From an uncultured Spirochaetaceae bacterium (GTDB taxonomy: Bacteria > Myxococcota_A > UBA9160 > UBA4427), in the NCBI GenBank assembly GCA_964565565.1, contig CAZMFM010000011.1, positions 1,152 through 65,151 of the forward strand: 64,000 bases of DNA, read 5' to 3'. Both the position numbers and the translations under genes were made by a program. Position 1 is the stretch's first letter. The number at the start of each line of letters is the position of its first letter. Under the pieces are notes generated by a model. That model did no database searches, was not told the DNA's origin, and saw only the letters and a program-made list of their open reading frames with translations. Positions 3,655 to 52,450 of this stretch are shown here, piece by piece.

Positions 3655-3663
3655 TGGGGGGCC

Positions 3664-4107: not shown

Positions 4108-4174
4108 GGGGGTTTCCGGGGTGTCTTGGAGGTTGGGGTGCTTTTGGATCTTTCTGGATGGGACGGGGACATTC

Positions 4175-5779: not shown

Positions 5780-5854
5780 TTGAGAGCTCCTGCCACCGGT
5801 CGTTGGGTGGCTCGTTGAAACCATGAAGTTGACGGCTTCATGGCGTCCGTAGGT

Positions 5855-6853: not shown

Positions 6854-6936
6854 CTTGTCGACCTAACGAATCGGCGCGGATGCCGAGGACGATAAGCGAC
6901 GATGAGCGACAATCAGAAACAACGACTCCGAAGGCG

Positions 6937-7443: not shown

Positions 7444-7529
7444 GGTTTGGCCCGTTCCTTTCGCTTTTCTAGATCTGGTTTGGTTGATCGATACGGATCG
7501 ATCGAGCTGAATCGCTGTTCGCCGCCATG

Positions 7530-22786: not shown

Positions 22787-22793
22787 TCGGCGC

Positions 22794-23720: not shown

Positions 23721-23734
23721 CGCTCGCTCTGCGC

Positions 23735-24562: not shown

Positions 24563-25458
24563 CTTTTTTCGCTTCCTTCCGTGTCGCATCCCGGACTGAC
24601 TTCCGGTGGTTGATCGGTTTCGGCATCGACACGCGCGAAGAACGCGCGCGCAACCCGGCCAAATTGTTCTGGGTTCTCAAGATGAGCCGCATGCCCGCTG
24701 TTGGGGATGCGCTCGAAGTGTGCCCCTGGGAGCCGATCGCCAAAGGCGCGTGCGATCGAGCAGAACTTCTCATCCTCATCCCCCGCGATGAAGCACGTCG
24801 GTACTTTCAATCCGGCGAGTTCGAGGGGTGTCATCGCGCCCGTTCCCATGGCCCGCAGACTCGAGGCCAGCGCGTGTGGGCGGTTGCGCATTCGTTGTGC
24901 CCGGTGGCGGGCGAGTGTCTCGGCGCCCAGGCGATGCTGGCTGGCGAAGATCGGCTTGGCCATCCAGGCATCGACAAAGGAATCGAGCCCCTTCGTCAAG
25001 ATTTCGTTGGCGAGCGTCTCATCGGCGCGGATCCGAGCCTTGCGGGCTTCGGGATCGATCAATCCCGCGCTGGCACCGATGAGAAGCGCCGAGCGAGCCC
25101 GTTCAGGATGGCTGGAGCAAAACGCGAGTGCCGCACGTCCGCCCATCGAGTAGCCAACTAGATGCGGTCTCTCGAGACCCAGCGAATCGATTACGCACGC
25201 GAGCTGCGCAACACATCGATCCATCGCATAGGCTTCAATCGCGCGCGGAGCGTCACTGCGACCGTGGCCGATCAAATCGACCGAGACGCAGTCACGTGTC
25301 GAGGACAACTCAGTTGCGACATCACGCATACTCTCGGTTGAACCCGTGAAGCCGTGGAGGATGACCACCGGTGGCGCGCTCGAGTCCGTACACGAGGCGA
25401 TTCGGGCGTGGAGTCGCACGCCCATGGCGTCGACGAAACTCGAGAACTCGCGCTTCAT
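24559..25458 (-). CDS. menH: SHCHC synthase (alpha/beta hydrolase)
   Basis: HGFTGS and nucleophile elbow GYSMGGR. Positioned between menD and menB. ATGA overlap with the menD stop. Confidence 0.8.
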
Positions 25459-27299
25459 AGGCTCATCATCCCGTTCTCGACCGCTTCTCCGACTTTGTAG
25501 ATCAATTCCTTGAAGTGCTCGACGTTTGCCAGGCGGTCGATCGGGACCTCGATCACTGTGACACCGGGAAAATCGACCGATTTCAGGAGTGCCTCTTCAT
25601 AGTCCGCATAGCCTTCGACAGTGTGATGATGAACTCCATATAGTGGTGCGACCGCCGCGAGATCGGCGGCGTGGGGTGTTGCGAACAATTCTTCGAAGCG
25701 GATCGACTCACCGTGTTGCGCAACCGGAAGCAACGAGAAAATTCCACCGCCGTCGTTATTGAAGACGACGATGGTGGCGCGAAGCGGGTAGCGGCGAGCA
25801 GCGAGCAGCCCGCCGATGTCATAAAGGAACGCGAGGTCTCCAGTCAGCAGGAAAACGTGACCTTGCTGTGCGGCCGCCGCACCGAGCGTGCTCGAAACCA
25901 TGCCGTCGATGCCGTTTGTTCCGCGGTTGCCGAGAACCCTGATCGCGGAATCGACTGCCGGCATGAATGCGTCCAGGTCTCTTACCGGCATGCTATTGGA
26001 TACGTAAAGGATCGAACCTTCGGGTATTGCATCGCACAGGACCCGCGTCGCCCGCGGTTCGAAGAGGCGCGATGTCTTCGCGAGCTCTCGGTCGAGTGTT
26101 GCTTGTGTTGCAGCCTCGGCGCGCAGAAAGCTCGCGAGCCAGTCGGTCTGGCCTCTAGATCTCGAGCCAGTTTCGATGGCCTCGGAAAGGCGATTGCAAA
26201 GGTCTACGGCGTCGGCGCAGACGCGAATCGAAGTGAGGTGAGACGGTTCATCCCAATTCGACCGCGGGACGACCAGCACCAACTCGTCGGGTGGAGAAGC
26301 TTCCAGCCACATGCGGAAGGCTTTGCTGGTCGGCGTCCCACCAAAACGCAAAACGGCGTCCGGTCGCTGGGAAGCTTTGAACTCGGGTTGGCGAAGAAAT
26401 AGATCCGAACCCGCCAAGATGGACGCGTCACCGACATGGGGCCCTCGTCGAAGGCCCGAGATCGGTTCGGCGAGCACCGGCCAGCCAAGCCGAGTGGCCA
26501 GTCGTGCAATCGATCGCGCGAACTCGGGTTCGTCCATCGCGCCACATGCGATGACCCCGCGCTCGATCGATTGGAAGCGCAGCGCGAGGTCTTCGATCTG
26601 GGCTGAGGACGCGAGGCGAGGCTGAGTTTCCAGGGCCACATAGGGGCGGCCATTTTCCCTGGCCGATTCCGCAAACCGGCCGCCGATCGCGTGCTCGTCG
26701 GCCCGGTCGTTGGGCATCGGTTCGAGGGGTTCGCGCAAAGGCCAGTTGAGGTGCACCGGGCCGGGATCGGGACCTCGACTCTCGCCAACGGCACGGCACG
26801 CGAGGGTACGGACATACCGGAGCATCGCCGGCCCGGTTTCAGGAACAGGAAGCTCGGCAAAGAAACGAATCTGGGCGCCGAAAATCTTGATCTGGTCGAT
26901 TGTTTGTCCCGCTCCCCAGTCTCGCAACTCCGGCGGACGGTCGGCGCTCAGAACGAGCAGCGGAACGCCGGCGTAGTGCGCTTCGAGGACTGCGGGAGCA
27001 TAATTTGCGAGTGCGGTGCCGCTGGTGCAAACGAGTGCCACAGGTTGACGCGTTGCCTTTGCGAGCCCGAGCGCGAAGAAGCCCGATGCGCGCTCGTCTA
27101 GATGAGACCAGACTTGCAAACTCTGCGTTAGGCCGGCTGCTACAGCTAGTGGCGTCGAGCGCGATCCGGGCGAGATGCATACGTGCCGGACTCGGCAGCG
27201 GGCGAGCTCGTCGAAGAACGACATCGCGAACGCATAAGTCGCATTCGATGCACCGATCGCGCGATTCGATTTTGTGGGCGAGACGTCACGGCTAGCCAA
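25455..27299 (-). CDS. menD: SEPHCHC synthase (ThDP-dependent)
   Basis: N-terminal VRHVCISPGSRSTPL and a ThDP motif region (GDLAFLYD...NNDGGGIF). A TTG start directly follows the menF TAG. Confidence 0.88.
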   Translation of the reverse strand: MASRDVSPTKSNRAIGASNATYAFAMSFFDELARCRVRHVCISPGSRSTPLAVAAGLTQSLQVWSHLDERASGFFALGLAKATRQPVALVCTSGTALANYAPAVLEAHYAGVPLLVLSADRPPELRDWGAGQTIDQIKIFGAQIRFFAELPVPETGPAMLRYVRTLACRAVGESRGPDPGPVHLNWPLREPLEPMPNDRADEHAIGGRFAESARENGRPYVALETQPRLASSAQIEDLALRFQSIERGVIACGAMDEPEFARSIARLATRLGWPVLAEPISGLRRGPHVGDASILAGSDLFLRQPEFKASQRPDAVLRFGGTPTSKAFRMWLEASPPDELVLVVPRSNWDEPSHLTSIRVCADAVDLCNRLSEAIETGSRSRGQTDWLASFLRAEAATQATLDRELAKTSRLFEPRATRVLCDAIPEGSILYVSNSMPVRDLDAFMPAVDSAIRVLGNRGTNGIDGMVSSTLGAAAAQQGHVFLLTGDLAFLYDIGGLLAARRYPLRATIVVFNNDGGGIFSLLPVAQHGESIRFEELFATPHAADLAAVAPLYGVHHHTVEGYADYEEALLKSVDFPGVTVIEVPIDRLANVEHFKELIYKVGEAVENGMMSL

Positions 27300-28787
27300 C
27301 TAGATCTCCGTGAGTGGCGCAAGCAGGGCGCGAAGCTTGAGGCGGGTCTCCGCGAGTTCGGCTTGAGGGTCGGAGGCTGCGACGATTCCGGCACCCGCGA
27401 ACAAGCGCGCGCTGGCGCCGCGAATCAAGGCCGACCGAAGCGCAACGCGAAATTCTCCGTCTCCCTTGGCGTCGAGATAGCCGATGGGGCCCGCATACCA
27501 GCCACGGTCCAGAAGCTCGAAGTGATCGAGCCAGTCCACTGCGACGGCGCTCGGTGCACCTCCGACGGCTGGTGTCGGATGCAGGCGGCCAACCAGGTCG
27601 AGAACACTTTTAGGCTCGGGCCGCCCGGGCCGCAGGCGTCCGTGCAGCGGCGATTCGAGGTGCTGGATGCCCTCCAATTTGAGTAGCCGGGGTTCGTTTG
27701 GCCCGTCAAGCCGGCCACAGGGTTCTGCCAAGGCGGCGCAGATCGCGCGTTTGACGACCTCGTGCTCTAGCCGTTCCTTGTCGCTCGAAAGCAATGCACG
27801 ACCGTATCGCTCTTCTTCTTCCGGGCGCCGGCCACGCGGTGCAGACCCGGCGATCGCCGCGGCCGACACTCGATCTCCATCAAGGGCAACGAGGCGCTCC
27901 GGGGAGGCGGAAACGAATAGATCGCCGCGCTCGTGAACGGCGACCAACGCACATGACGGGTAGAGGGTGCGTAGGCTCCGAAGGAACGTGGCCAAATCGA
28001 AGGGACGGTCCGCGTCGACCCGCACGGAGCGGGCGATGACCACCTTCTCGAACTTTCCGGCTTCGATCGCATCGAGTGCGCTTTCGACCTGCGCCACGTA
28101 CCGCCCGTGTTCGCGATCGGCGCGTACGCGGATTTCCGGACCCTCTGTCGAGCGCCTGGGCTTTGCGGCGATCGATTCCGGCGTGACCTTGGTGACCTTG
28201 GCAGACAGTCCCCGCGACACGGGCCATGGGGAACAGAGATCGTTGAGTATTGTGTTCGAGTCGCTTTCGGGATTCACCCGGATGGTTCGCGCCACATCGA
28301 GTTCGCCACTGCGCATCACGATCGAGAGCGCGGGTAGCACCATGCGCCCGGAACCAAATGCTTCCCACTCGCTACCCGGCTCGATCTCTCGGTCGGAGAA
28401 GCTAAAGCCGCCCATCAGGAGTGGTCCTCGGCAGTCTGCGACCGTCGTCGTCGCGCGGTGCGAGCCTGGTAGATCCAATACCACGAGGTCGCCGAAGAGT
28501 TCGCTACTCGCCGCCGAAGCTTCGGTAAAGCGTTTTGGGCCGTGGCTGGCCACGACGGTGCAGCGTCCCAATCCGAGAATCGCGATCCCCCGGCTGGGCT
28601 CTTCCCAGTAGAAGGCGTCCTCATCCGAGGCTTCGATGAAATCCGCCAGCAGATCCCGAGTGGAACATCGCCAACGCACCGCGAGCCATTTCGTTCGACC
28701 ACATCTCAGCGCGTCTGCCCGGCAGGCATCGATGGCCTCTCGAACCTGCTCGGAGGAGGCGCGAATGGTTTCGAACGAGATCTTCAA
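27300..28787 (-). CDS. menF: isochorismate synthase
   Basis: Chorismate-binding C-terminal pattern (LHPTPAVGG, GWYAGPIGY, ALRSA, AGAGIV). Confidence 0.85.
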   Translation of the reverse strand: MKISFETIRASSEQVREAIDACRADALRCGRTKWLAVRWRCSTRDLLADFIEASDEDAFYWEEPSRGIAILGLGRCTVVASHGPKRFTEASAASSELFGDLVVLDLPGSHRATTTVADCRGPLLMGGFSFSDREIEPGSEWEAFGSGRMVLPALSIVMRSGELDVARTIRVNPESDSNTILNDLCSPWPVSRGLSAKVTKVTPESIAAKPRRSTEGPEIRVRADREHGRYVAQVESALDAIEAGKFEKVVIARSVRVDADRPFDLATFLRSLRTLYPSCALVAVHERGDLFVSASPERLVALDGDRVSAAAIAGSAPRGRRPEEEERYGRALLSSDKERLEHEVVKRAICAALAEPCGRLDGPNEPRLLKLEGIQHLESPLHGRLRPGRPEPKSVLDLVGRLHPTPAVGGAPSAVAVDWLDHFELLDRGWYAGPIGYLDAKGDGEFRVALRSALIRGASARLFAGAGIVAASDPQAELAETRLKLRALLAPLTEI

Positions 28788-29482
28788 CCTTTTGCTCCAG
28801 TCAAGATCTGCGCTGCGCCGAGAAGCAGGCGCCGCTTCTCGAGTTGTCGCATCCCCACCTTGTCGAGCATCGAGAAGATCTCCACGGGCGACGGGAGATA
28901 GGCGGTGGATTCGGGCAGGTACCGGTAGGCCTCGTAGTCCGAAAGAAGTCCACCTAACGCGGGGACGAACCGATCGAAGTAGAGTGAGTGTGCGATGCGG
29001 ACGGGAGCCGAAGCGGGGCGATCAACTTCGATCACGGCCATCCGCCCGCCGGGTTTCAGAACCCGCGCAATCTCCGCAAAGACCTCCGGCAGAGAGACGA
29101 AGTTTCGAAGTGCGAAGCCGCACGTGACCACGTCGATGCTGGCATCGCGAATCGGCAGCCGGCCGGCATCCCCGTTCGTGAAAGCGGCGTCGATTCCCCG
29201 GGCCGAGGCGCCGCGGAGCATCTCCCGCGCGAAGTCGAGGCCAATCACTGTGGCCCCTCGCGCGCGCGCCAACTCGCACAGGTCTCCGGTCCCGCAGGCC
29301 AGATCCAGCAGCAAATCTCCCTGGCCGACCGCCACCCGATCGAGGGCTTGCCGACGCCAACCCTGGTCGAGTCCCAAGCTGACGAGTCGATTCAGCAGGT
29401 CGTACCGGGGTGCGATGCGATCGAACATGTTGCGAACGGCTATGCGTTTTTCATCTCCCTGCGGAAGGATTAGCGGCGCCAT
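28784..29482 (-). CDS. ubiE: demethylmenaquinone/ubiquinone C-methyltransferase
   Basis: UbiE/MenG pattern (VRNMFDRIAPRYDLLN, SAM motif LLDLACGTGD). Overlaps the menF start by 4 nt. Confidence 0.88.
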   Translation of the reverse strand: MAPLILPQGDEKRIAVRNMFDRIAPRYDLLNRLVSLGLDQGWRRQALDRVAVGQGDLLLDLACGTGDLCELARARGATVIGLDFAREMLRGASARGIDAAFTNGDAGRLPIRDASIDVVTCGFALRNFVSLPEVFAEIARVLKPGGRMAVIEVDRPASAPVRIAHSLYFDRFVPALGGLLSDYEAYRYLPESTAYLPSPVEIFSMLDKVGMRQLEKRRLLLGAAQILTGAKG

Positions 29483-30264
29483 TCGCCCTCCAGGTGAGTG
29501 GCCTCGACCGCGGCCAGGGCGCGTTCGAGGGCGGGCCCTTCGCCCTTGGCGCGCAGTCGTTCCATCGCTCGGTTGACCAGGGTGCGCTGAAAATGCATGG
29601 CCACGAGTCGGGTCAGCCGCGGAAGGAGGTCTCTGAACGCCTGGGCGATGACCTCGGGATCGTCGCCGTCTTTGGCCACTTTGCGGACGTGATCGTCAAA
29701 TAGATCGATCCCTGTTTCGCTAATGGCGCGAATGTTCTGGTCGTGGGTGGCGGCGAGGCTCAAGAATTCGGAGAGCGGGAGTCCTGCCCCGAGAACGGCC
29801 ATTCCACTCGTGAGCATTTCCAGGTCTGCGGAAGAAAAGAACTCTTCTCCGTCGCGTTCGACGGGCTCCAAGACCCCGGCTTGTTGGGCGGCGTCCACGA
29901 GATGGACGGGTACACCGGCTTCGGCCGCCAATTCGGAGCGCGTCAACCGATGCTCGCCGGTGCGCTCCTCGGCAAGAGCGCTTACGAGCGAATCGAGCAG
30001 GGCGTTGGGAGAGGGTGAGGCTTCCACGACTTGGTTCGGATTCGCAACCTCCTCGGGTGCCGGAAGCCGACCTATCTGGGCGAGCGTGAAGCCTTGGCCC
30101 AGGAGCGAACGAATCTGGCGGATTCGTGAAAGGTGGTGGGCGCCGTAGATGGCATTCCTGCCACGGCGAGCGGGTGCGGGGATCAACCCGCTGCCCTGGT
30201 AGAACCGGATCGTGTCGATCTTGACCCCACTCGCAGCGGCAAAGCGCTCGACATTATATTCCAT
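29470..30264 (-). CDS. MerR-family transcriptional regulator with two tandem MerR-type HTH segments
   Basis: First HTH FAAASGVKIDTIRFYQGSGLIP...IYGAHHLSRIRQIRSL. Second MerR-like segment LTRSELAAEAGVPVHLVDAAQQAGVLEPVERDGEEFFSSADLEML. Its 3-prime end overlaps the ubiE start by 13 nt. Confidence 0.75.
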   Translation of the reverse strand: MEYNVERFAAASGVKIDTIRFYQGSGLIPAPARRGRNAIYGAHHLSRIRQIRSLLGQGFTLAQIGRLPAPEEVANPNQVVEASPSPNALLDSLVSALAEERTGEHRLTRSELAAEAGVPVHLVDAAQQAGVLEPVERDGEEFFSSADLEMLTSGMAVLGAGLPLSEFLSLAATHDQNIRAISETGIDLFDDHVRKVAKDGDDPEVIAQAFRDLLPRLTRLVAMHFQRTLVNRAMERLRAKGEGPALERALAAVEATHLEGEWRR

Positions 30265-36957: not shown

Positions 36958-38646
36958 CTAGAGCGCGCTGGTCGCCGTCGTCCCGTCCCGCAACCGGCCC
37001 TCGACCCGGTACGGCTGCACGGTCTTCTGTCGACCCTTTAGCCGGACTTCTTCGAGCGCCTCGCAGTGGAAGGCATTCTTGGCCTGAAGCCAGGTGGCTT
37101 CGCCGATCACGACCTCGCCCGGTTTGGCGACCGAGGACTCGAGGCGGCTGGCGATGTTGACGACGTCGCCGATCACCGTGTAGTCCTTGCGCTGGGGGGA
37201 GCCGATGTCGCCGACGACGACGCTGCCCGAGTTTACGCCGATGCGCATGTGGATGGCGCGGAAGCCTTCGCGGGCGGCATTGAGTGCGGTCAGGGCTTCT
37301 TGCATGCGCAAGGCCGCTTCGACGGCGCGCTCTGCGTGATCGGGCATGGGAAGTGGCGCACCGAAGAACGCCATCATTCCGTCTCCCCTGAATTTGTCGA
37401 GGGTTCCCTCCATCTCGAAAACGGCCCCCGTTAGGCGCTCGAAGATCTGGTTCAAGATCAAGATGACTTCGCCCGCTGGCAGCCGTTCGGCCATGGTCGT
37501 AAAGCCGGTGAGATCCGCAAAGAGGATCGAGACTTCACTTTCGTCGGCCACCATCGCGCCCATTCCAGCGCCGGGTGCCTCGAGAATCTTTTCGACGACG
37601 GCCGGCGAGCTATAACGGGAAAGGCGCACGCGTCGTTCTTGCTCACGTCGGATGTCTTCACGCAGCGCAGCTTGTTCGACGGCGATGGCGGCGAGCAGGG
37701 CGAGAATCGACAAAGCCTGAAGCTGTGACAGCTCGAAGGGATGGGTCGCCGATTGGCGATCGACGTAGATGTAGCCGCTGACGTTTCCGTCCCGCAAAAG
37801 GGGTGCGCACATGGCGGAGTGGATATTCATCATGATTACGCTCTCTGCTCCGCCGAGGCGGCCGTCGAGTGCGGTGTCCTTGACTAACACAGCCTTTTTC
37901 TCGTCGATGGCGAGGCCAGCGATTTTCGAGCTGATCGTGATCGGTGCGTCGGGCACGCCTTCTCTATTGCGCATGGCCATCGGTTCGATCGAGTCCGACG
38001 AGGCGTCGTAGAGGCAGATCACACCGCGTTCGACCGGGAGGTTTGCGAAGACGAGCGAGAGGATGCGGTCGAGAGTTTCGGCAAGCGTTGTGGAGGAGAG
38101 GAGGCTTTCGGCAGATTCGCTGACGAGGCGCAGCAGTTCGCCTGTGCCCTCCAGGCGGACCGGTTGTTCGGCGCCCAGGCTCGCCAGCACGCCTTCTTCC
38201 GACAGGTCGACCGCCTTGCTGCGGAGATCGCCGGCCGCCTGCAATAGATCGTCGAGGCCCTGCAGTTCGAGGACTTCGGTATGTCCGTTAGGCGCCGGTT
38301 TCTCATCGAAGACCACCCGCGCCCGAGAGGCCTTGGACTCGGGTCCGATCTCGACGTAGATGCGAATCGTGCCGAGGTCGATTCGGTCGCCGTGGCGAAG
38401 GACCTGGTCGGTGACGTGAAAAGTGTTGACCCTCGATCCATTCTTGCTGCCGAGGTCGCGCAGCACCCAGCCCTCATCGTCGTGGGCGATGCGGGCATGC
38501 TGGCGCGAAATGCTCTCGTGTTGCAACAAGAGGTCGCAGTCGGGGGCGCGGCCGATGACGACCGGACGGAGGCCGATCGTGAAGACGCGATCGCGTCCTT
38601 CGTGATGAAAGCGAAGGCGGCAGGTGATGCGATCTTCGTCCTTCAA
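36958..38646 (-). CDS. FHA - GAF - class III adenylate/guanylate cyclase
   Basis: FHA (VVIGRAPDCDLLLQHESISRQHARI...DLGSKNGSRVN), a central GAF-like segment, and a cyclase domain (VSILFADLTGFTTMAERL...FRGDGMMAFFGAP...VNIASRLE). Confidence 0.85.
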   Translation of the reverse strand: MKDEDRITCRLRFHHEGRDRVFTIGLRPVVIGRAPDCDLLLQHESISRQHARIAHDDEGWVLRDLGSKNGSRVNTFHVTDQVLRHGDRIDLGTIRIYVEIGPESKASRARVVFDEKPAPNGHTEVLELQGLDDLLQAAGDLRSKAVDLSEEGVLASLGAEQPVRLEGTGELLRLVSESAESLLSSTTLAETLDRILSLVFANLPVERGVICLYDASSDSIEPMAMRNREGVPDAPITISSKIAGLAIDEKKAVLVKDTALDGRLGGAESVIMMNIHSAMCAPLLRDGNVSGYIYVDRQSATHPFELSQLQALSILALLAAIAVEQAALREDIRREQERRVRLSRYSSPAVVEKILEAPGAGMGAMVADESEVSILFADLTGFTTMAERLPAGEVILILNQIFERLTGAVFEMEGTLDKFRGDGMMAFFGAPLPMPDHAERAVEAALRMQEALTALNAAREGFRAIHMRIGVNSGSVVVGDIGSPQRKDYTVIGDVVNIASRLESSVAKPGEVVIGEATWLQAKNAFHCEALEEVRLKGRQKTVQPYRVEGRLRDGTTATSAL

Positions 38647-43342: not shown

Positions 43343-43765
<423 letters not shown>

Positions 43766-45253
43766 TCAGCTTTCGGTTCTGGCCAGCCGCGCTTCGGAGA
43801 GGCCGGCCTCGGCGAATGCGCCGCCTCCCGAATCCTCCATGAAGCCCGGTGAACCCGAGAGGTCGTAGGCGTGCATGCCGTGCTCTCCAAGGTCCAGTCC
43901 TTCGAGTTCTTCTTCCGGCGAGACGCGCAATCCGATTGTCGCCTTGAGCGTCAAGAAGATCGCGGCGGCGCAGGCTACCGTGAACACGCCGTAGCAAAGG
44001 ACTCCGTAGGCCTGGATGAGGAGCGTGTGCTCGGGGTTGGTCGAGAAGATGCCGACCGCCAAGGTGCCCCAGATACCGCAGGTGAGGTGGACCGAGATCG
44101 CGCCGACCGGATCGTCGACGCGAATCTTGTCGAAGAAGATCACCGAACCGACGACCAGGAAGCCGGCGATCAAGCCGACCGCGATTGCGCTCGACGGGTT
44201 GATGACGTCCGCGCCTGCCGTGATCCCGACGAGTCCGGCGAGAATGCCGTTCAAGGCCATCGAGAGGTCGGGCTTCGAGCTGATGAAGGTATAAGCGATC
44301 ATCGCGCCAATGCCGCCGGCCGCCGCGGCCAGACAGGTGGTGACCAGGACGAAGGACGTTGCCGCCGGGTCGGCCGAGAGGACCGAGCCGCCGTTGAATC
44401 CGAACCAGCCGAGCCATAGGAGGAAAACGCCAATGGTCGTCAATGGCATCGAGCTACCGGGAATCGGGTGGACTGAACCGTCCTTGCCATATTTCCCGAG
44501 GCGGGCACCGAGGACCAGTGTTCCGATCAGCGCTCCCCAACCACCGACGGAATGGACCAGCGTCGAACCAGCGAAATCATAGAACCCGGCGCTATCCAGG
44601 AAGCCAGCGCCCCATTTCCATGAACCCGCAATGGGGTAGACGAAGGCGACGAAGAGCGCCGAGAAGATCATGAAGGACTTGAGCTTGATCCGCTCTGCGA
44701 CTGCGCCGGACACGATCGTTGCCGCGGTCGCAGCAAACATGGCTTGAAAGAGAAAGTCGGTCCAGTAGGTGTAACCGCCGTCGGCATAACCCGCGGTGTT
44801 TGCGCCTTCAGCGAACCCTGCACTCAATCCGACACCAGCAAAGCCCAGTACGCCGGACGTGATGAGATTGAACTCGCCCGGGTACATGAGATTGAAGCCC
44901 ACCAGGAAGTACGTGAGGATGCCGCAACAAATGATGAAGGTGTTCTTGAACAGGATGTTAGTCGTGTTCTTGGCCCGTGTGAGTCCCGATTCGACCATGG
45001 CGAAACCGAGATGCATCACGAAGACGAGTGCTGCCGAGAGCATCATCCAGACATTGTTGGCGGTGAAGAGGGCCAGTGAGGCGTCATCGGCCATCGCGGT
45101 GGTCGGTGCGAGGACGGCGGCGAGCAATACGGCGCCGACACCTGCGCGGCCGGCTATCGGTCCCACGGAGGTCCGCGTAGATCGATCGGGCGCGACGTAG
45201 CCCGGCGATGAGCCCGGCAATGAGAGGGAACTGCGAAGCATGTTGGTCTCCAT
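43766..45253 (-). CDS. amt: ammonium transporter
   Basis: Amt/MEP signatures (AGFAMVESG-like LGFAMVESGLTR, DFAGSTLVHSVGG, FGFNGGS). Start set to METNM (45253) or MLRSS (45241), because the longer track ORF would run through the sigma54 promoter. Confidence 0.9.
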   Translation of the reverse strand: METNMLRSSLSLPGSSPGYVAPDRSTRTSVGPIAGRAGVGAVLLAAVLAPTTAMADDASLALFTANNVWMMLSAALVFVMHLGFAMVESGLTRAKNTTNILFKNTFIICCGILTYFLVGFNLMYPGEFNLITSGVLGFAGVGLSAGFAEGANTAGYADGGYTYWTDFLFQAMFAATAATIVSGAVAERIKLKSFMIFSALFVAFVYPIAGSWKWGAGFLDSAGFYDFAGSTLVHSVGGWGALIGTLVLGARLGKYGKDGSVHPIPGSSMPLTTIGVFLLWLGWFGFNGGSVLSADPAATSFVLVTTCLAAAAGGIGAMIAYTFISSKPDLSMALNGILAGLVGITAGADVINPSSAIAVGLIAGFLVVGSVIFFDKIRVDDPVGAISVHLTCGIWGTLAVGIFSTNPEHTLLIQAYGVLCYGVFTVACAAAIFLTLKATIGLRVSPEEELEGLDLGEHGMHAYDLSGSPGFMEDSGGGAFAEAGLSEARLARTES

Positions 45254-45353
45254 TTGGCGAAGGAAAAAGCGAGGGGAGAGCTTTCTTGAATGACCGGCTT
45301 GCATGATCTCTCCGCAGTCGTGCGGCCGGTTGAGTCTTCTGGCAACGGATAAA

Positions 45354-45369
45354 TGCAATGGTCGTGCCA
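45354..45369 (-). promoter_or_regulatory. sigma54 -24/-12 promoter of amt-glnK
   Basis: Minus strand reads C-TGGCACG-ACCA-TTGCA, a perfect match to TGGCACG-N4-TTGCA. It lies about 100 nt upstream of the amt start. Confidence 0.75.
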
Positions 45370-45375
45370 GATCCG

Positions 45376-45396
45376 GAATGGATGGAGTATCCATTC
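45376..45396. promoter_or_regulatory. perfect 8-5-8 palindrome GAATGGAT-N5-ATCCATTC next to the amt promoter
   Basis: Read directly. Lies just upstream (relative to amt) of the -24 element. Confidence 0.35.
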
Positions 45397-45629
45397 AATT
45401 GCAGATACTTAGGCCGAAAAAGATGGCTCGCCGACAGTCGATCTGATCGGTTGGCGGTTGGATCTGCTCGGACTGGCGCCAGCATTTGCACAGTGCTTGG
45501 GCAGTGAGCACCGCCTGGATCCGCTCGTGTGGGCAGCCCCTGCGCAGTCCTTGCGCAGGGCGCCAAGGCTTCGTCAAGCGCCTCCCTTACCTGGACGAAG
45601 AGAAGGCCGGAGTTGCACTCCGAGGACTC

Positions 45630-47393
45630 ATGGATTTCATTATTCTCATTCCCGCCGTCGCGATCATGGTGTCGGCCGCCTTCGGAGCGGTCTGTATCGC
45701 GTGGGATTCAGACCGACGAGCGACCACGTCGATGTCCGCGATCTTCGTCTGCACGGGTGTCTGGGCCCTGCTCGACCTGATGACCTTTCTCACGACGGAT
45801 CCCGATTCGGCTCGCATCTGGATGCAGTGGATGCATCTGCCGGCCCTGCTTCTGGGGCCGAGCGTGACCTGGCTTCTCGGGCATGTTTTTCCGCAGATCG
45901 GCAACCGTCTCCTCGGTCTGGCGCGTTTGGGATTCGCTTTGGGCCTGGTGCTGGGTGTGTCGGCGGCGCTTACGCCGGGAACGATCGGGGAGGTGGTCGC
46001 AGCGCCTTGGGGAGGCTGGCTCGGTCGCTATGGCGCGGTCTCCGTGCTCATCGTGCCCATCGGAACCATCCTGCCCTTGCTGGCCGTCTACGAAGTTTCG
46101 CGTCTCGAAAGTCCGATTCGACAACTCCGGCCCGATGCACGTCGAGCGAACGCGATGACCTTTGCGGTCGTGGTCTCGCTCCTGGCGGCGGTTACGACTG
46201 AGTATGTCTTGCCCTTGCTCGAGATTCCGGCTCCGCGCTTGGGTGCAATTTCCGTAGCCAGCGTTTCGGCCGCGGTCTGGCTATTCACTCTCCACGAAAC
46301 GAATGACCTGGCTGTGACGCCCGAAGGCATGGCCCGCTCGATGCTCGCTGAACTTCACGATGGTGTCGCCCTGGTCGGCCTCGACGGCTCCATCCTGGCT
46401 TCGAATCTTCGCTTCGAGGAGATGAGCGGACGCGCGAGCGCAAATCTGATCGGTGCCTTTTTGCCGGACTGGGTCGATCCCTCCCTCGAGGAGATCTCGA
46501 AAGGGATCGAGGATCGGGAAACGGGTCTTGTCCGCGTCGATGGTGCGTTGCTTCCCGTTTCGTTGTCGTCGTCGAAAGCAGTCGGGCGGGATCGCAAAGC
46601 GATCGGCGCGGTCGTCGTCTTTCGGGACATGCGTGAGATCGACGCGCTCAGACGCCGCCTCTTGACTTCGGGGCGGCTCGCGGCGATCGGGGAATTGGCC
46701 GCGGGAATCGCTCACGAAGTCAACAACCCGATCGCCTTCATCCGATCGGACCTCAACCTTCTCTCGCAACGACTGCAGGAAATCCGCCAGTGCGTTTCGC
46801 AGAAACCGCATTGCGAAAGCGAGCTCTCGATCATGGAAGGCGTAGGGGCACGGATCGAAGTCGCGCTTGCGGGCGTCGAACGCGTTGCGCAGGTCGTGAG
46901 TGATGTTCGTGAATTTGCGCATGTAGGCGGTCGCAGCCAAGGCGGAAGTGATCCCGTCGTGCTGCTCGAAGGTGCGATGCGCTTGGCGAGGTTGCAGAGA
47001 GGGGACGAAGTCGCGCTCCGCGTTCGTGAGTCCGAATGCAGCGATTGGATCGAATCGGGCCAGGAACTCAAGCAAGTCTTGTTGGCGCTCCTGCTGGTTC
47101 TCGTCGAGAGCCTCGATCAGGGCGGGTCGATCGATGGGGTCGTCGAATCCGATCGTAAGCATCTTCGAATCGGGCTGTGCGCGGCGCCGCTTCGCGAAGA
47201 CGCGACGGCGATGAGTCGTCGCTTTGATTCGATCGCGGGCGGCGATCTTCATGCCTCGAACTCTGAGTTCAGGATCGTAATCGCGACCGAGCTCATTCAT
47301 GAGCTTGGCGCGTCCTGCACTTTTCGACCGTCGGGGCCAGAGTCCCTGTCGATCGAGTTGCAGCTTCCTCTCGAGGAGGAGCCGAGCGCATGA
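45630..47393 (+). CDS. membrane PAS sensor kinase paralog 1: H-box intact, ATP-binding (CA) motifs degenerate
   Basis: Multi-TM N-terminus and a PAS-like segment. H-box LAAGIAHEVNNPIAF. The CA region reads LKQVLLALLLVLVESL / LRIGLCAAPLRE / RRFDSIAGG / SEFRIVIATELIHELGAS, so there are no N, G1 or G2 boxes. ATG at 45630 has a GAGGA RBS. Confidence 0.85.
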   Translation: MDFIILIPAVAIMVSAAFGAVCIAWDSDRRATTSMSAIFVCTGVWALLDLMTFLTTDPDSARIWMQWMHLPALLLGPSVTWLLGHVFPQIGNRLLGLARLGFALGLVLGVSAALTPGTIGEVVAAPWGGWLGRYGAVSVLIVPIGTILPLLAVYEVSRLESPIRQLRPDARRANAMTFAVVVSLLAAVTTEYVLPLLEIPAPRLGAISVASVSAAVWLFTLHETNDLAVTPEGMARSMLAELHDGVALVGLDGSILASNLRFEEMSGRASANLIGAFLPDWVDPSLEEISKGIEDRETGLVRVDGALLPVSLSSSKAVGRDRKAIGAVVVFRDMREIDALRRRLLTSGRLAAIGELAAGIAHEVNNPIAFIRSDLNLLSQRLQEIRQCVSQKPHCESELSIMEGVGARIEVALAGVERVAQVVSDVREFAHVGGRSQGGSDPVVLLEGAMRLARLQRGDEVALRVRESECSDWIESGQELKQVLLALLLVLVESLDQGGSIDGVVESDRKHLRIGLCAAPLREDATAMSRRFDSIAGGDLHASNSEFRIVIATELIHELGASCTFRPSGPESLSIELQLPLEEEPSA

Positions 47394-49156
47394 TCCCCTT
47401 CCTTCTCGTCAAACTCTTCAGCGCAGCGCTATCCGTGGCGCTGGGGGCGGGAATCCTGGCGCGCGACCACGGCCTGAAGTCGAATCGATTGATCGCCACG
47501 TTCCTGTTTTGCAATGCGTGGTGGGCGTTCTTCGAGTTCATGCTCTACCAGGAAACGAATCCGGAGATCGCCATTTGGATCTATCGCTGGATGGCGGTTG
47601 GTTGGATGCCTCTCGGCGTGCTCTGCATGCACGCTTCGGTGACGCTTTCTTCGATGGAAGATCATCCTGTCACAAAGATGATCTGGCCACTCTATGCCGC
47701 GATTGCGCTTATCCTGCCCTCGGCCATGACCAGCGATTTCGTCATCGCCGCAATCGTGCAGGAGGAATTCGCTTGGCAACCGGTTTTCGGTTTCGGGATG
47801 GTGCCCGCCTATTTCCTGCTCGTGGCCCCCGTTGTTGGGACAATGATCTGCTGGCGTAGCGTCATGATACTGCGCGATAGCGGCGGTCAGCTTCAGTTGG
47901 CCCGAATCGTCTTTTTCGGGCTCGCGGGTTCCCTCGTCGCGGGTACGGCGACCGCGATCGTTTTGCCACTTTTTGGGCTGGCCGCTGTGGGAATCACGAC
48001 GACGCTCGTCGCCCTGGTTGGTCTCGCGGCGGCTTGGACCTTGCGGCAATACGGCTATTCACTCATCTCCTCGCAAGCCTTCGCTCGCGAGATTCTTGAT
48101 ACTCTCAAAGATGGTGTCGTGTTAGTCGGCGGCGACAGCGTTCTGCGCGATGCCAATCGCGCCTTCCTGCGAATGGTCGGTGGCACCAAGGCATCCGCGA
48201 TCGGGCGGCCGATCTCAGATTGGATCCTTGGCTTCCCGGATCGTGAGGGTCCGTCTGAGTCTTCGGCCTTCATGGAGCTTCGAACCCGGTCCGGAGAGAT
48301 CATCCCCGTCGTGGTTTCAGCGCCGGTCCATTTTCTCGGCCCGGGCCGCTTTGCCGGACAAGCGTTCTTGTTGAGAGATCGACGAGAGATCCTCGCCTTG
48401 CAAAGACGCATCGTGGGTTCCGTGCGTCTCGCCGCGGTAGGCGACCTGGCCAAATCGATCGCGCGTTCGATCAATGAGCCGGTCGCTCAGGCACGGAACG
48501 AACTGGACGGGCTTTCGATCGACTGGGAGACTGTCGAGTATATCTCCGAGCTCGCCAACCTCGAAGAGCCGTGCAAGGAGGCCATCGGCGAAGGATTCGA
48601 ATTGATCGGGGAATGCACGGAAGGCGTCGACCGAATCTCGACGATCGTCCGCGAGGTCGGTGGCTACTCATCCGAGATGGCACGTGCCGACTTCGTTGAA
48701 GTCTCCTTCGCCGATATCGTCTCACGCTCGCTTCGGATCGCGAGTGTCCATGCCCCGCCCTGGTTGGAGGTCGAGGAGAGCCTGGATGTCGATGTACGAA
48801 TCGAATGTCGCTCGGAGGAGATCGAACGGGTCGTGACCAATCTGCTAGTCAATTCAATTCAGGCGCTCGAAGAAAAGCGAGCTGAGATTGGTCACCTCGT
48901 GATTGGGGTCGCAGCCTTCGGTGACCGAGCCTTGCTTCATATCGAAGACGACGGAAGTGGCATCACGCCCGAGGTGCTCGATCGGATCTTTGATCCCTTC
49001 TTCACGACGAAGCCGGTGGGCAAGGGGACGGGCCTCGGCCTCGCTATCTCGTACCACATCATCAAGGGGCACGACGGCGATATCCGGGTTTCGTCGGTTC
49101 CTGGTCGTGGTACGAGCGTGGTGGTCGAGCTACCGAGCGCGACGGGCTCGAATTAG
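47390..49156 (+). CDS. membrane PAS sensor kinase paralog 2: H-box His replaced by Arg, CA domain intact
   Basis: Same architecture as paralog 1. The H-box position reads LAKSIARSINEPV, with no His in the DHp. N-box VVTNLLVNSIQAL, G1 IEDDGSGI, F-box IFDPFFTTK and G2 GTGLGLAIS. ATGA overlap with paralog 1. Confidence 0.88.
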   Translation: MIPFLLVKLFSAALSVALGAGILARDHGLKSNRLIATFLFCNAWWAFFEFMLYQETNPEIAIWIYRWMAVGWMPLGVLCMHASVTLSSMEDHPVTKMIWPLYAAIALILPSAMTSDFVIAAIVQEEFAWQPVFGFGMVPAYFLLVAPVVGTMICWRSVMILRDSGGQLQLARIVFFGLAGSLVAGTATAIVLPLFGLAAVGITTTLVALVGLAAAWTLRQYGYSLISSQAFAREILDTLKDGVVLVGGDSVLRDANRAFLRMVGGTKASAIGRPISDWILGFPDREGPSESSAFMELRTRSGEIIPVVVSAPVHFLGPGRFAGQAFLLRDRREILALQRRIVGSVRLAAVGDLAKSIARSINEPVAQARNELDGLSIDWETVEYISELANLEEPCKEAIGEGFELIGECTEGVDRISTIVREVGGYSSEMARADFVEVSFADIVSRSLRIASVHAPPWLEVEESLDVDVRIECRSEEIERVVTNLLVNSIQALEEKRAEIGHLVIGVAAFGDRALLHIEDDGSGITPEVLDRIFDPFFTTKPVGKGTGLGLAISYHIIKGHDGDIRVSSVPGRGTSVVVELPSATGSN

Positions 49157-49185
49157 GTCGAGAACCTGTCTGACTCAAGTCCCGG

Positions 49186-49202
49186 TCGGCCGCGGCCGAT
49201 TT
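49186..49202 (+). terminator. weak possible terminator after kinase paralog 2
   Basis: GC palindrome tcggccgcggccga followed by TTT. Short stem and weak U-tract. Confidence 0.25.
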
Positions 49203-49254
49203 CAGATCAGCGGGCCTGCATTGCCCGAACCCAGAACGCGTGCGGAGACGAACC

Positions 49255-49872
49255 ATGCAGTCGATCCATCTCAGTGGCTTGATCGTTCAGCCGATCGCGG
49301 AGCGAATTCGCGATTGGAATCTCGACGGGAAGATCAGTGAGGAAGATCTCGATCGCGCCTTGTCGAGCGACGGCCGAGCGTTGATCGATCACTCGCTGGC
49401 CTTTGGCGATTGGGTCCCTGTCGAGGATGTCGAAGGACTGGTCGGATTGGCGGCCGATCAGATTGGTGGCGAGACGGGCATGGTCGAATGGGCAGATGAA
49501 ATCGTTCTCGGCTGGCACTCGGAGAGTGCGATCGAGAACCTTGTTCGTGCTGGTCGAGCATTGGTTGATTCACCGGGCTTCGTCGTGACCCAGGCCAGTG
49601 GACTCGTCGTGCGAGATGCCGACTGGAGTTACGACGGAGGACGGACCTCCTTCAGCGTTCGTCTGCGAGGACTCGGGGATGTCAGTCCCGCCCTGAAGGC
49701 ATTGCTCGGCTCGCTGCTCGCGCGATTGGCTTGCTTGCCGACGAATCTCGGCTTCGATGTTCGCTTCGACGGGATCGACGGGGAGGACCTGGTTGTTTTT
49801 GGAGAGGCGCCCGATGGCAGGGATGACGATCAAGGTCAGAGCCGACTTCATCAGGCGGCCTTGATCGCCTAA
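49255..49872 (+). CDS. hypothetical cytoplasmic protein (205 aa)
   Basis: ATG at 49255 has a GGAGA RBS. Protein-like composition with an acidic tail. No motif I can name. Confidence 0.6.
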   Translation: MQSIHLSGLIVQPIAERIRDWNLDGKISEEDLDRALSSDGRALIDHSLAFGDWVPVEDVEGLVGLAADQIGGETGMVEWADEIVLGWHSESAIENLVRAGRALVDSPGFVVTQASGLVVRDADWSYDGGRTSFSVRLRGLGDVSPALKALLGSLLARLACLPTNLGFDVRFDGIDGEDLVVFGEAPDGRDDDQGQSRLHQAALIA

Positions 49873-49906
49873 GCGATCTATCACCAAGAGTTGCCAGCGC
49901 AGTGGT

Positions 49907-52450
49907 CTATTCGCGCAGGCCAAGGATCCGTAGCATGGGACCCGCCGGTAGGCGGGAATCGTCGAGAACAACCTCCGCCTCGATCTGGAACCCGCCTTCA
50001 CCCTCTTCATCGATCAGGGTCTGAACGACATCGAAAGCCAACTCGCTCCGTGCATCGAGCCGAGTCCAATGCCCTCGACGTGCATCGGGGTCGTAGCGGA
50101 CTTCACCCTGGGCAGCGAAGACCGCGGAGAATTCAGACTCGAATCGACCGGCGTCCCAGCTACCTTCCGCAACACAGCCAGAGGCTTCATCGAAGTCCCT
50201 TCTGGACAGCGCATGCAGTAACTGATGCATTTCCGCGCGCACGCGGGCCTCGAAGCGCTTCCGATCGAGTCGCCGGGGCGCGCGATCCGGTATTGCCTCG
50301 TTGTCGGGTGCAGCCGGCCGTTTCTTCGGCGCGACGAGATTCTCCCATTCCTCGATCAGGCTCGAGTCGACGCGAGCCAGCATGGCGCGGAAGAAAGCGA
50401 TCACTTCTTCAATCTCGTCGCTGCGCGCGGATTCAGGAAGATTGCGCGAGAGGGTCGAGTGGACCTGATTGAGATAGCGCAGCAGGACGCCTTCGAGGCG
50501 TGCGATGCCGTAGCGCCTAACGTAGTCGTCGAAGGAGAGGAAGCCTTCCCAGATCTCTCGCGCGATCGATTTGGGCCGGACGGAGTCGCTTCCGACCCAC
50601 GGGTGATGGGCTGCGAAGAGGTCGTAGGTGGCGTAGAGGAAATCCGCGTTCGGCTTGTCCCAGGTCACGCCTTCGAGTTTCGTCATGCGCTCTTCGTAGG
50701 GCACCCGCTCCGCTTTCAGTTCGGCGATCAGCTCGGATTTTCGCTGATGGACCTGAGCCAGGAGCAGCGCGCGGGGATTTTCGAGGATGGCTTCGACGAT
50801 CGAGAGCACGTCGAGTGCATAGTCCGCCGCGTCGGGATCCAGCGCCGTGACCGCATCGACCAGGTAGAGTGAGAGCGTGTGGTGAAGACCAAAATCCCGC
50901 TGAAGGTCTTCGTCAACGCGTGCCCGGGCAGGGCCACCCGGTCCGGCCCTTTCGACTTGCACGACCCCGGCCTGTCGAAGGGACCGGAATAGCACTGCGG
51001 CTTCTCGGCGCAGTCTCTTCTTTCGGCTCTTCGTTTCGAAGCTCTCGTTGGTGAGTTCGATCAATTCGCGGTAGCCGGAGCCCGGAAGCGCCTGGTCTTC
51101 TCCGCGTTGCAGGAGCGAGACGAGCGTGGCGTGGCTCATGCTGAACTGAGATCGAAGTGTCTCAGCGGGCTTTTCGCGTAGTTGCTCGAAGGTCTCCGCG
51201 GACCAGGCGACAAAGCCGCGTGGCGGTGGCTTTTTCTTCTTCTCTTTCTTGCGTCCGGTTGCGGCTGCCCGCGCGCTGGCACGTTTGTTTTCGATCACGT
51301 GCTCGGGTGCCTGGCAAACGACACTGCCTTCGACGTCGAATCCGCGGCGGCCCGCGCGGCCGGCGATCTGCTTGAAGTTTCGAACGGAGAGCAGGCCTAC
51401 TTTCTCGCCGTCGAATTTAGAGAGCTTGGTGAAGAGCACGGTTCGAATCGGAATGTTGACGCCCACACCTAGGGTGTCCGTTCCGCAGATCACCTTGAGC
51501 AAGCCGCGCTGGGCGAGTTGCTCGACGAGCAGGCGGTATTTCGGAAGGATGCCGGCGTGGTGCAAGCCGATTCCGAATTTCAAGAAGCGTTGGATGTCTT
51601 TGCCGTAGGGGGAATCGAAACGAAAGCCACCGATGGCTTCGCTCAGCGCACGTTTCTCTTCTTTGCTGGTCATTTGTCCACTGGTCAGGCCCTGCGCTTG
51701 CTCCGCGGCGTCGCGTTGCGTGAAGTGGACCATGTAGATGGGAGCTTGGCCGGCGGCGAGGAGTGACTCGACGGTTTCCACGACGGGTGTTTCCCGATAG
51801 CTGAAGTCGAGGGGAACGGGTCGATCATCGCTGTGGACGTGGGCGACTTCGCGGCCCGTGCGCTTCTGGATGCGCTCTTCGATGACCGCGGTATTTCCGA
51901 GGGTGGCGGACATCAATAGGAAGCGGGTCTTTTCGAGGACCAGGAGTGGAACCTGCCAGGCCCAGCCGCGATCGCGATCAGCGAAATAATGGAACTCATC
52001 CATCACGACGTAGGGGGCATCTGTCTCAAGGCCTTGTCGGAGCGCCATGTTGGCCAGAATCTCGGCGGTGCAGCAGACGATCGGAGCGGCCCAATTGATG
52101 GCTGCGTCGCCGGTCAACATACCGACATTCTCAGGGCCGAATTCTTCACAGAGCGCGAAAAACTTCTCGCTAGTCAGCGCCTTGATCGGAGCGGTGTAGA
52201 AGGATCGTTTGCCCTCGCATAACGCCTTGAAATGGAGGCCGAGCGCGACGAGGGATTTTCCGGAACCCGTGGGCGTGCTCAGCACCACATGGCGGTTGGT
52301 CATGAGCTCGAGCAACGCTTCTTCCTGGGCATCGTAGAGCGTGAGATCCGCGTCGGCGCACCAGCGGGTGAAGCGATCGAGGATGGCTTCCGGGTCGAAT
52401 AGCCCGCCCTCTGGAACCCACTCGATCAGTTTTCGACGTGTCGTTGTCAT
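49907..52450 (-). CDS. DEAD/DEAH-box (Ski2-like) helicase with a DUF3516-type C-terminal region
   Basis: TPTGSGKSLVA (Walker A), VVMDEFHYF (DExH) and SATLGN. The N-terminal LYDAQEEALLEL pattern and the long C-terminal domain are typical of the DUF3516 helicase family. Confidence 0.85.
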   Translation of the reverse strand: MTTTRRKLIEWVPEGGLFDPEAILDRFTRWCADADLTLYDAQEEALLELMTNRHVVLSTPTGSGKSLVALGLHFKALCEGKRSFYTAPIKALTSEKFFALCEEFGPENVGMLTGDAAINWAAPIVCCTAEILANMALRQGLETDAPYVVMDEFHYFADRDRGWAWQVPLLVLEKTRFLLMSATLGNTAVIEERIQKRTGREVAHVHSDDRPVPLDFSYRETPVVETVESLLAAGQAPIYMVHFTQRDAAEQAQGLTSGQMTSKEEKRALSEAIGGFRFDSPYGKDIQRFLKFGIGLHHAGILPKYRLLVEQLAQRGLLKVICGTDTLGVGVNIPIRTVLFTKLSKFDGEKVGLLSVRNFKQIAGRAGRRGFDVEGSVVCQAPEHVIENKRASARAAATGRKKEKKKKPPPRGFVAWSAETFEQLREKPAETLRSQFSMSHATLVSLLQRGEDQALPGSGYRELIELTNESFETKSRKKRLRREAAVLFRSLRQAGVVQVERAGPGGPARARVDEDLQRDFGLHHTLSLYLVDAVTALDPDAADYALDVLSIVEAILENPRALLLAQVHQRKSELIAELKAERVPYEERMTKLEGVTWDKPNADFLYATYDLFAAHHPWVGSDSVRPKSIAREIWEGFLSFDDYVRRYGIARLEGVLLRYLNQVHSTLSRNLPESARSDEIEEVIAFFRAMLARVDSSLIEEWENLVAPKKRPAAPDNEAIPDRAPRRLDRKRFEARVRAEMHQLLHALSRRDFDEASGCVAEGSWDAGRFESEFSAVFAAQGEVRYDPDARRGHWTRLDARSELAFDVVQTLIDEEGEGGFQIEAEVVLDDSRLPAGPMLRILGLRE

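Follow-up and report, generated by a model that had tools for sequence, protein, structure and literature searches.

Histidine kinases are taught as homodimers, and both the choice between cis and trans phosphorylation and the firing of one site at a time were worked out with engineered mutants. In class I kinases, one active site fires at a time. In experiments attributed to Yang and Inouye in 1991 and to Ninfa and colleagues in 1993, mutants of EnvZ and NtrB affected either in the acceptor histidine or in the ATP site reportedly regain activity in mixed dimers, which is said to have established trans-autophosphorylation. Together, single-site firing and this complementation make a heterodimer with one productive site mechanistically plausible. 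Very few productive kinase heteromers came up in our literature searches. The closest precedent for the pair described here is FasB/FasC, two adjacent kinase-like membrane proteins of group A Streptococcus (fasBCAX; Mol Microbiol 2025), which bind each other, and not themselves, in two-hybrid assays (PMC12675982). FasC residue His246 is essential, FasC can do without its own kinase domain (a 'pseudokinase'), and the kinase domain of FasB is proposed to phosphorylate FasC in trans (PMC12675982). Here we analyse a 64,000-nucleotide stretch of contig CAZMFM010000011.1 (assembly GCA_964565565.1, an uncultured Spirochaetaceae bacterium that GTDB places in Myxococcota_A), hereafter the window, and within it a tandem pair of membrane sensor kinase paralogs, P1 and P2. 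P1 keeps the phospho-acceptor histidine and has lost the ATP site; P2 keeps the ATP site and has lost the histidine. Comparative sequence evidence makes it probable that the two join in a single heteromeric sensor histidine kinase, where the ATPase of P2 would phosphorylate P1 on His362 in trans.

The EnvZ and NtrB experiments used laboratory point mutants of one gene in statistical mixed dimers, whereas P1 and P2 are natural, encoded by two diverged genes and long fixed. FasB and FasC are like P1 and P2 in that the genes are adjacent, with the histidine on one partner and the kinase domain on the other. They belong, however, to a different kinase family and to Firmicutes, and their locus includes the response regulator FasA. 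FasB also retains candidate histidine residues and reciprocity is not shown there, whereas the losses in P1 and P2 are complete, mirror-image and conserved; a lineage-wide comparative series is available for P1/P2, and none is reported for FasB/FasC. In the split kinase CheA3/CheA4 of Rhodobacter sphaeroides, CheA4 phosphorylates CheA3 (PMC3591291). As we propose for P1 and P2, neither of these proteins self-phosphorylates, and the ATP-binding domain and the histidine are on separate proteins. Both are of the CheA type (class II), with whole domains missing and the histidine on a separate CheA-type P1/Hpt domain, and their interaction is transient and takes place within the chemoreceptor array. 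P1 and P2, unlike CheA3 and CheA4, are full-length class I membrane kinases in which all domain folds are kept and the catalytic residues alone are lost. Hik36-Hik43 of Synechocystis is described as a split histidine kinase (PMC7656254). The comparison sets P1/P2 apart from these known heteromers as two full-length class I membrane sensors with complete mirror-image losses, present lineage-wide with intermediates and with no linked regulator.

The two genes lie on the same strand and overlap by four bases (Table 1), the junction in the window reading ggagccgagcgcATGAtcc. For P1, an alternative upstream TTG start at 45486 is possible; the ATG at 45630 is favoured because orthologs run 586-590 amino acids (aa). 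We found a 4-bp overlap at 8/8 junctions read in the window and at other loci (numbered with an L): ATGA in the window, L081, L082 and L084-L087, and GTGA in L083. At L002 and L003, P1 is followed by an adjacent P2 in the same order, which speaks to adjacency only, the overlap being confirmed elsewhere. Adjacency of P1 and P2 held in every locus read directly (window, L002, L003, L081-L085), and for 32 ortholog pairs P1 and P2 are on contigs of equal size. By BLASTP, P1 and P2 are 28% identical over aa 4-437, an alignment that pairs LAAGIAHEVNNPIAF with LAKSIARSINEPVAQ. By hydropathy analysis, the first ~222 aa of both proteins contain six segments that are strongly hydrophobic, and both follow the same order of membrane N-terminus, PAS-like segment, helical hairpin and alpha/beta domain. 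The nearest NCBIfam models for both are AtoS/ZraS/EspA/EspC-type kinases; these alignments end near residue 500 in P1 and reach the end of P2. A promoter and terminator scan of 45300-50000 gave nothing exceeding shuffled expectation. Long antisense open reading frames (ORFs) run over P1 and P2 (339 aa at 46281-47300 on the minus strand, 206 aa, and others), as is typical where DNA is high in GC; nothing indicates that they are genes.

We found that P1 retains a class I acceptor site. It matches HisKA at 25.3 bits (E 1.6e-5), just under the Pfam cutoff of 26.9, and its H-box motif HEVNN, when aligned to ThkA and ZraS, has the class I acceptor pattern H-E/D-x-x-N/T. Pfam gave no HATPase_c match in P1. 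In a HMMER alignment, the two N-box asparagines of ZraS (PDB 9jfj) face Ala/Val in P1 (LTQVLLNLYLNAIQ versus LKQVLLALLLVLVE); of the remaining CA boxes, the G1 Asp is replaced by Ala, the G1 Gly residues by Pro/Arg, and G2 is absent. An AlphaFold2 (AF2) model of P1 residues 331-587, built on a 66-sequence alignment, consists of a helical hairpin and an alpha/beta domain, with a predicted local distance difference test (pLDDT) of 86 and a predicted template-modelling score (pTM) of 0.79. When this model was submitted to Foldseek, the matches were to whole DHp-CA cores, with ZraS best (E 2.7e-12), followed by YF1, GacS, RetS, CpxA, HK853 and DivL. Because the model resembles whole kinase cores, the pseudo-CA domain of P1 is predicted to keep the kinase-core fold although its ATP site has been lost. 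As a query on its own, the pseudo-CA domain returned only 20 matches from 1.84e9 representative proteins, with no canonical kinase among them. Nineteen (E < 1e-4) cover most of the domain, nine are P1 orthologs found earlier, and the last is a short repetitive match.

P2 shows the mirror image. It matches HATPase_c at 84.7 bits, and also PAS_8, and Pfam gave no HisKA match in P2. Arg359 falls on the acceptor histidine of ZraS (HMMER, PDB 9jfj) and, in the pairwise alignment, on the histidine of P1; no histidine is present within P2 aa 333-437. Its ATP-site residues are N484, N488, D520xG522xG524 (DDGSG), FDPFFTTKP and G544xG546xG548xG550 (GKGTGLGL).

To place the pair among its relatives, we searched 5.8 billion proteins and found ~95 orthologs of P1 (42-81% identity, mostly 586-590 aa) and ~80 of P2 (47-82%). 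Beneath these came complete relatives, at 27-38% identity, with HisKA_7TM, PAS, HisKA and HATPase_c. The few ortholog sources that carry names are metagenome-assembled genomes of Myxococcota or 'Deltaproteobacteria'. A scan of GTDB genomes with the P1 alignment was swamped by the common GELAAGIAH pattern and yielded 3 true orthologs; the other loci were reached through exact-protein contig look-ups. Our alignments comprise 83 full-length P1 orthologs, 75 P2 orthologs and 54 complete relatives. The P1 H-box, GELAAGIAHEVNNP, is invariant in 83/83 orthologs, and in the same 83/83 both N-box Asn, the G1 Asp and both G1 Gly are missing, with an intact G2 motif in 0/83. In P2, the two N-box Asn, DxGxG, FDPFFTTKP and GxGxGLGL are invariant in 75/75 orthologs, the acceptor column drifts (R39 E11 Q8 A6 H4 T4 K2 D1), and the catalytic Glu at H+1 has become Ser, Ala or Thr in all 75. 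The ratio of nonsynonymous to synonymous substitution rates (dN/dS), calculated by the Nei-Gojobori method for the window against two orthologous loci (75-79% protein identity), was 0.13-0.20 for the P1 pseudo-CA domain, 0.10-0.12 for the P1 DHp and 0.07-0.15 in each domain of P2 (DHp ~0.1), values that are rough because dS is saturated. The reciprocal motif loss is therefore conserved, under purifying selection, and is not decay.

A sequence-only reading of the window had already described two adjacent genes joined by ATGA at 47390-47393, and the ORFs and junction sequence bear this out; every peptide that it quoted was recovered in the P1 and P2 translations. Its assignment of a canonical acceptor box to P1 agrees with the HisKA match, the ZraS/ThkA alignment and the invariance in 83/83 orthologs, and the loss of the N, G1 and G2 signatures that it reported for P1 was seen in profile and structure-anchored alignments as well as in 83/83 orthologs. 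For P2, the textbook CA domain that it named is confirmed by the HATPase_c score and the boxes invariant in 75/75 orthologs, and the replacement of the acceptor histidine by Arg, with no histidine in the DHp, by the alignments to P1 and ZraS and the histidine-free aa 333-437. Two checks proposed with it were also run: in orthologous pairs the reciprocal substitutions persist, as does the 4-bp start/stop overlap, and neither frameshifts nor stops occur; and dN/dS in the degenerate domains is below 1, at ~0.1-0.2. The heterodimer that it suggested is supported, at the level of sequence, by all comparative tests run.

Related tandem pairs form a graded series. At L005, both the upstream and the downstream gene are complete. 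At L089, the upstream gene lacks the first N-box Asn and the Lys of FFTTK and keeps G1 and G2, and the downstream gene keeps its histidine and a complete CA domain. At L087 and L088, which share Amt/PEP-mutase/helicase surroundings (L087 being syntenic), the upstream gene lacks both N-box Asn and G2 and keeps DDGRG, and the downstream histidine is replaced by Ala. At L086, the upstream CA domain is fully degenerate, and downstream the histidine is replaced by Arg with the adjacent Glu kept. In the family of the window, the upstream CA domain is again fully degenerate, and downstream the histidine is replaced and the adjacent Glu lost too. The direction of loss is constant throughout: the upstream gene loses the ATP site and the downstream gene the histidine. 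Random decay of two independent kinases would not give a constant direction, whereas redundancy within a heteromer, in which one CA domain serves one histidine, would.

Relationships among these genes were drawn from neighbour-joining distance trees without bootstrap, whose branching order is indicative only. In these trees the upstream genes of L086, L087 and L089 adjoin the P1 clade, the downstream gene of L086 adjoins the P2 clade, and P1 and P2 are each nearer to complete family kinases than to each other. The true intermediates (L087, L089) sit outside the P1 clade. The graded series points to stepwise reciprocal loss. The P1 orthologs P0078-P0086, which carry a precomputed PF02518 match, were considered as intermediates and rejected, since the N, G1 and G2 residues are absent in all of them. 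Among complete-family proteins, the acceptor position is occupied by Gln or Tyr in P0112, P0216 and P0217, and the P0217 contig carries a pair with a complete upstream gene and a downstream gene with Gln at the histidine position.

Table 1. Positions of the kinase pair, its domains and key residues, and the downstream gene in the window, and of related pairs at other loci.
Feature	Position	Strand	Basis or remarks
P1, membrane sensor kinase paralog, His-only (six transmembrane segments, PAS, DHp with His362, pseudo-CA), 587 aa	45630..47393	+	ORF; Pfam HisKA and PAS, no HATPase_c; 83 full-length orthologs
P1 N-terminal membrane region, aa 1-225, six hydrophobic segments	45630..46304	+	Hydropathy; faint HisKA_7TM similarity
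P1 PAS-like segment, aa 230-335	46317..46634	+	Pfam matches to PAS/PAS_9/PAS_4 are under the cutoff; NCBIfam sensory_box scores 25 bits
P1 DHp helical hairpin, aa 336-440, H-box GELAAGIAHEVNNP	46635..46949	+	H-box invariant in 83/83 orthologs; two long helices in AF2 model
P1 His362 codon, predicted phospho-acceptor of the pair	46713..46715	+	Translation; aligns with H-box His of ZraS and ThkA
P1 pseudo-CA, aa 441-587, with the kinase ATPase fold but no N, G1 or G2 box	46950..47390	+	Motif table; AF2/Foldseek; dN/dS
ATGA start/stop overlap, P1 end/P2 start (translational coupling)	47390..47393	+	GGAG 8 nt upstream of P2 start; junction sequences
P2, membrane sensor kinase paralog, ATPase-only (six transmembrane segments, PAS, His-less DHp, canonical CA), 588 aa	47390..49156	+	ORF; Pfam HATPase_c, no HisKA; 75 full-length orthologs
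P2 DHp-like hairpin, aa 333-437, no His	48386..48700	+	Residue check; conserved, dN ~0.08-0.15 with dS saturated
P2 Arg359 codon at acceptor-His position	48464..48466	+	Translation; ZraS alignment
P2 CA domain, aa 438-588, N, G1, F and G2 boxes	48701..49153	+	Boxes invariant in 75/75 orthologs; matches CckA and ZraS CA domains
Conserved 205-aa protein, H-NOX-like predicted fold, possible third component (tentative)	49255..49872	+	Position; AF2; Foldseek
L005 pair	3512-7023		GTGA overlap
L089 pair	3251-6762		1-bp overlap
L087/L088 pair	2733-6313 (L087)		ATGA overlap
L086 pair			ATGA overlap
Window family pairs			ATGA overlap

Our data suggest the following route and mechanism. A translationally coupled tandem pair would have undergone reciprocal loss, leaving a P2 whose intact CA domain is expected to bind ATP. 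P2 would be unable to phosphorylate itself, with Arg at its acceptor site and the adjacent catalytic Glu also lost, and would act in trans to phosphorylate His362 within the DHp helix of its partner. P1, predicted not to bind ATP, keeps H-E-x-x-N (the kinase, phosphotransfer and phosphatase motif) together with a highly conserved docking helix, and would hand the phosphoryl group on to a response regulator, probably NtrC-type, whose gene lies elsewhere. Since each subunit has membrane and PAS inputs of its own, two signals could be integrated, and the downstream H-NOX-fold protein may give a third input. A DHp heterodimer is the most likely form of the complex, and P1 and P2 most likely work only together.

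The DHp alignments are asymmetric. Across the docking stretch from H+1 to H+16, mean column conservation is 0.91 in P1, 0.71 in P2 and 0.76 in complete relatives, and the net charge of DHp helix 2 is -0.7, -6.3 and -4.1, respectively. Opposite conserved charges occupy five alignment columns, as with Arg381 of P1 (83/83) versus Asp/Glu378 of P2 (75/75) and, in the first CA helix, Lys481 of P1 (83/83) versus Glu479 of P2 (75/75). The charge asymmetry of the DHp fits selection for heterodimers over homodimers.

Several points weigh against a trans-phosphorylating P1/P2 heterodimer. That the two proteins heterodimerise, that the phosphoryl group moves in trans and which regulator receives it are all inferred, and a looser hetero-oligomer, made of a P1 dimer and a P2 dimer, would fit the same data. 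The charge complementarity is read from alignment columns and is not anchored on a dimer structure. A histidine occupies the acceptor column in 4/75 P2 orthologs, though without the adjacent Glu. The dS values behind the selection estimates are ~1 and partly saturated, yet dN/dS is far below 1. Finally, neither the window nor the orthologous loci read supplied a linked cognate response regulator.

This last point bears on a different explanation, in which the two proteins have separate roles. P1 would then be a kinase-dead phosphotransferase or phosphatase, acting in the manner of Spo0B/ChpT or RetS on a receiver phosphorylated by another kinase, and P2 would apply its ATPase to a non-histidine substrate or serve as an ATP-dependent switch. 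P1 does follow Spo0B/ChpT logic, with a DHp histidine hairpin and a CA-like domain that has no ATP site; its model matches RetS and DivL, among other structures, and no linked receiver or regulator fixes the pathway. Spo0B and ChpT, however, are soluble and are fed by receiver domains, whereas P1 has six transmembrane segments and a PAS domain, with no receiver encoded nearby. RetS-GacS heterodimers are inhibitory (PMC12189002); RetS pairs with GacS through the DHp domains, and both also homodimerise.

We therefore consider the receiver searches alongside this explanation. As the sequence-only reading had stated, the 64-kb window yielded no receiver-domain gene: phmmer, run from 4 receiver seeds, detected none, a hidden Markov model from 6 seeds detected none in all six-frame fragments of the window (best E 3.6, versus 1.6e-14 for the positive control), and Pfam scans of 42 window ORFs, both kinases included, detected none. 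The flanks likewise contained no receiver and no receiver-containing partner, within +/-10 kb in three orthologous loci and within 5-6 kb on each side in the others. Separate roles would also leave unexplained the reciprocal, same-direction losses along the series, the fact that the genes stay strictly adjacent, overlapping by 4 bp, at 35-80% identity, and the strongly conserved DHp-like hairpin of P2. Given this balance, we regard separate roles as unlikely.

Somewhat less likely again is an arrangement in which P2 is a DivL-like pseudokinase scaffold that controls P1 allosterically, and a third, complete kinase elsewhere is the phosphodonor for His362 in a multikinase network. P2 resembles DivL in that its acceptor histidine is replaced; DivL, however, regulates CckA and is not the ATP-donating half of a pair. 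Myxococcota have many orphan kinases, the window itself encodes a complete orphan PAS-HisKA-HATPase_c kinase at 9545-11323, and multikinase networks such as GacS/RetS/LadS are known (PMC12189002). That kinase is nevertheless unlinked to the pair and belongs to another subfamily, with 28% identity to P2 over the cytoplasmic part only, and the invariance of the P2 ATP-binding residues in 75/75 orthologs argues for catalysis and not for a scaffold. Simple decay, in which one or both genes became pseudogenes after tandem duplication, could account for the missing catalytic motifs in each gene but is refuted by the conservation data and has next to no chance of being correct: both genes are open and full-length in ~80 orthologs at 42-82% identity, all domains have dN/dS values of 0.07-0.20, those motifs that remain do not vary, and the predicted P1 fold is well ordered.

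Downstream of the pair, 99 bases past P2, begins the ORF of the 205-aa protein. This ORF comes after the pair in the window and at L002, L003 and L081-L085. In L089, which is not syntenic, a homolog of 24% identity (7005-7559) occupies that place; at L087 a homolog is absent. We found 87 homologs, many of them on contigs equal in size to those of the kinase pairs, and no Pfam or NCBIfam match to the protein. Its AF2 model (pLDDT 89, pTM 0.86) gave a Foldseek list in which H-NOX proteins were the best matches and made up most of the entries, aligned over ~200 columns with template-modelling scores of only 0.5-0.62 and a best E of 2.5e-4. Kinship to H-NOX at the level of sequence was considered and rejected: hhalign against Tt H-NOX, an approximate comparison, gave a probability of 0.3, and Pfam HNOB was not matched. 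As for heme-ligand features, neither the proximal heme histidine nor the Tyr of Y-x-S-x-R is evident; the protein has no conserved histidine near residue 100 and no more than a partial S-x-R at 134-136. H-NOX proteins often adjoin and regulate histidine kinases, which makes an accessory sensor a reasonable idea, and from the predicted fold we tentatively propose that the 205-aa protein is a heme-less H-NOX-fold accessory sensor.

If P1 and P2 are a natural trans-only pair, they would offer a clean system for directionality, half-of-sites asymmetry and dimer specificity. The series from complete/complete through partly eroded to reciprocal pairs would then show by what route a coupled tandem duplicate can give rise to an obligate heteromer, and the pair would be a template for two-input synthetic sensors. 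There is also a warning for annotation, in that an adjoining 'PAS domain protein' and 'ATP-binding protein' may be halves of one kinase. A broader proposal, to which we give even odds, is that the lineage has a hard-wired asymmetric class I kinase, that is, an obligate heterodimer of two full-length membrane sensors that share out the catalytic cycle, one supplying the ATP chemistry and the other bearing the phosphoryl group and addressing the regulator, with living intermediates in related genomes and a heme-less H-NOX-fold third subunit. Were the obligate-heterodimer reading true, the complex would be a natural AND-type sensor of two or three inputs and would exemplify, in textbook fashion, subfunctionalisation (constructive neutral evolution) within one enzyme active site.

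The surroundings of the pair are syntenic, with divergent amtB-glnK upstream and a DUF3516 helicase, PP2C and other genes downstream, and say little about function. In the window, amtB (ammonium transporter) and glnK (PII) are at 43343-45394 on the minus strand, divergent from the kinase pair. A functional link between them and the pair was considered and ruled out: a thioesterase gene separates them at other loci and synteny extends over the entire region, so the adjacency carries no weight. The third kinase of the window, on the plus strand at 9545-11323, is complete (PAS, HisKA 42 bits, HATPase_c 86 bits) and has no neighbouring response regulator; it is of a different subfamily from the pair.

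Elsewhere in the window, 20091-29482 on the minus strand looks like a menaquinone operon, with AMP-binding (MenE-like), MR/MLE (MenC-like), UbiA prenyltransferase (MenA-like), alpha/beta hydrolase (MenH-like), thiamine pyrophosphate enzyme (MenD-like), chorismate-binding (MenF-like) and UbiE methyltransferase genes, and after it comes a MerR-family regulator at 29470-30264. Genes for a Ppx/GppA phosphatase and polyphosphate kinase 2 lie near each other at 5855-8477 on the minus strand. A protein with FHA, GAF and adenylate/guanylate cyclase domains is encoded at 36958-38646 on the minus strand and holds the same relative position in L081-L083.

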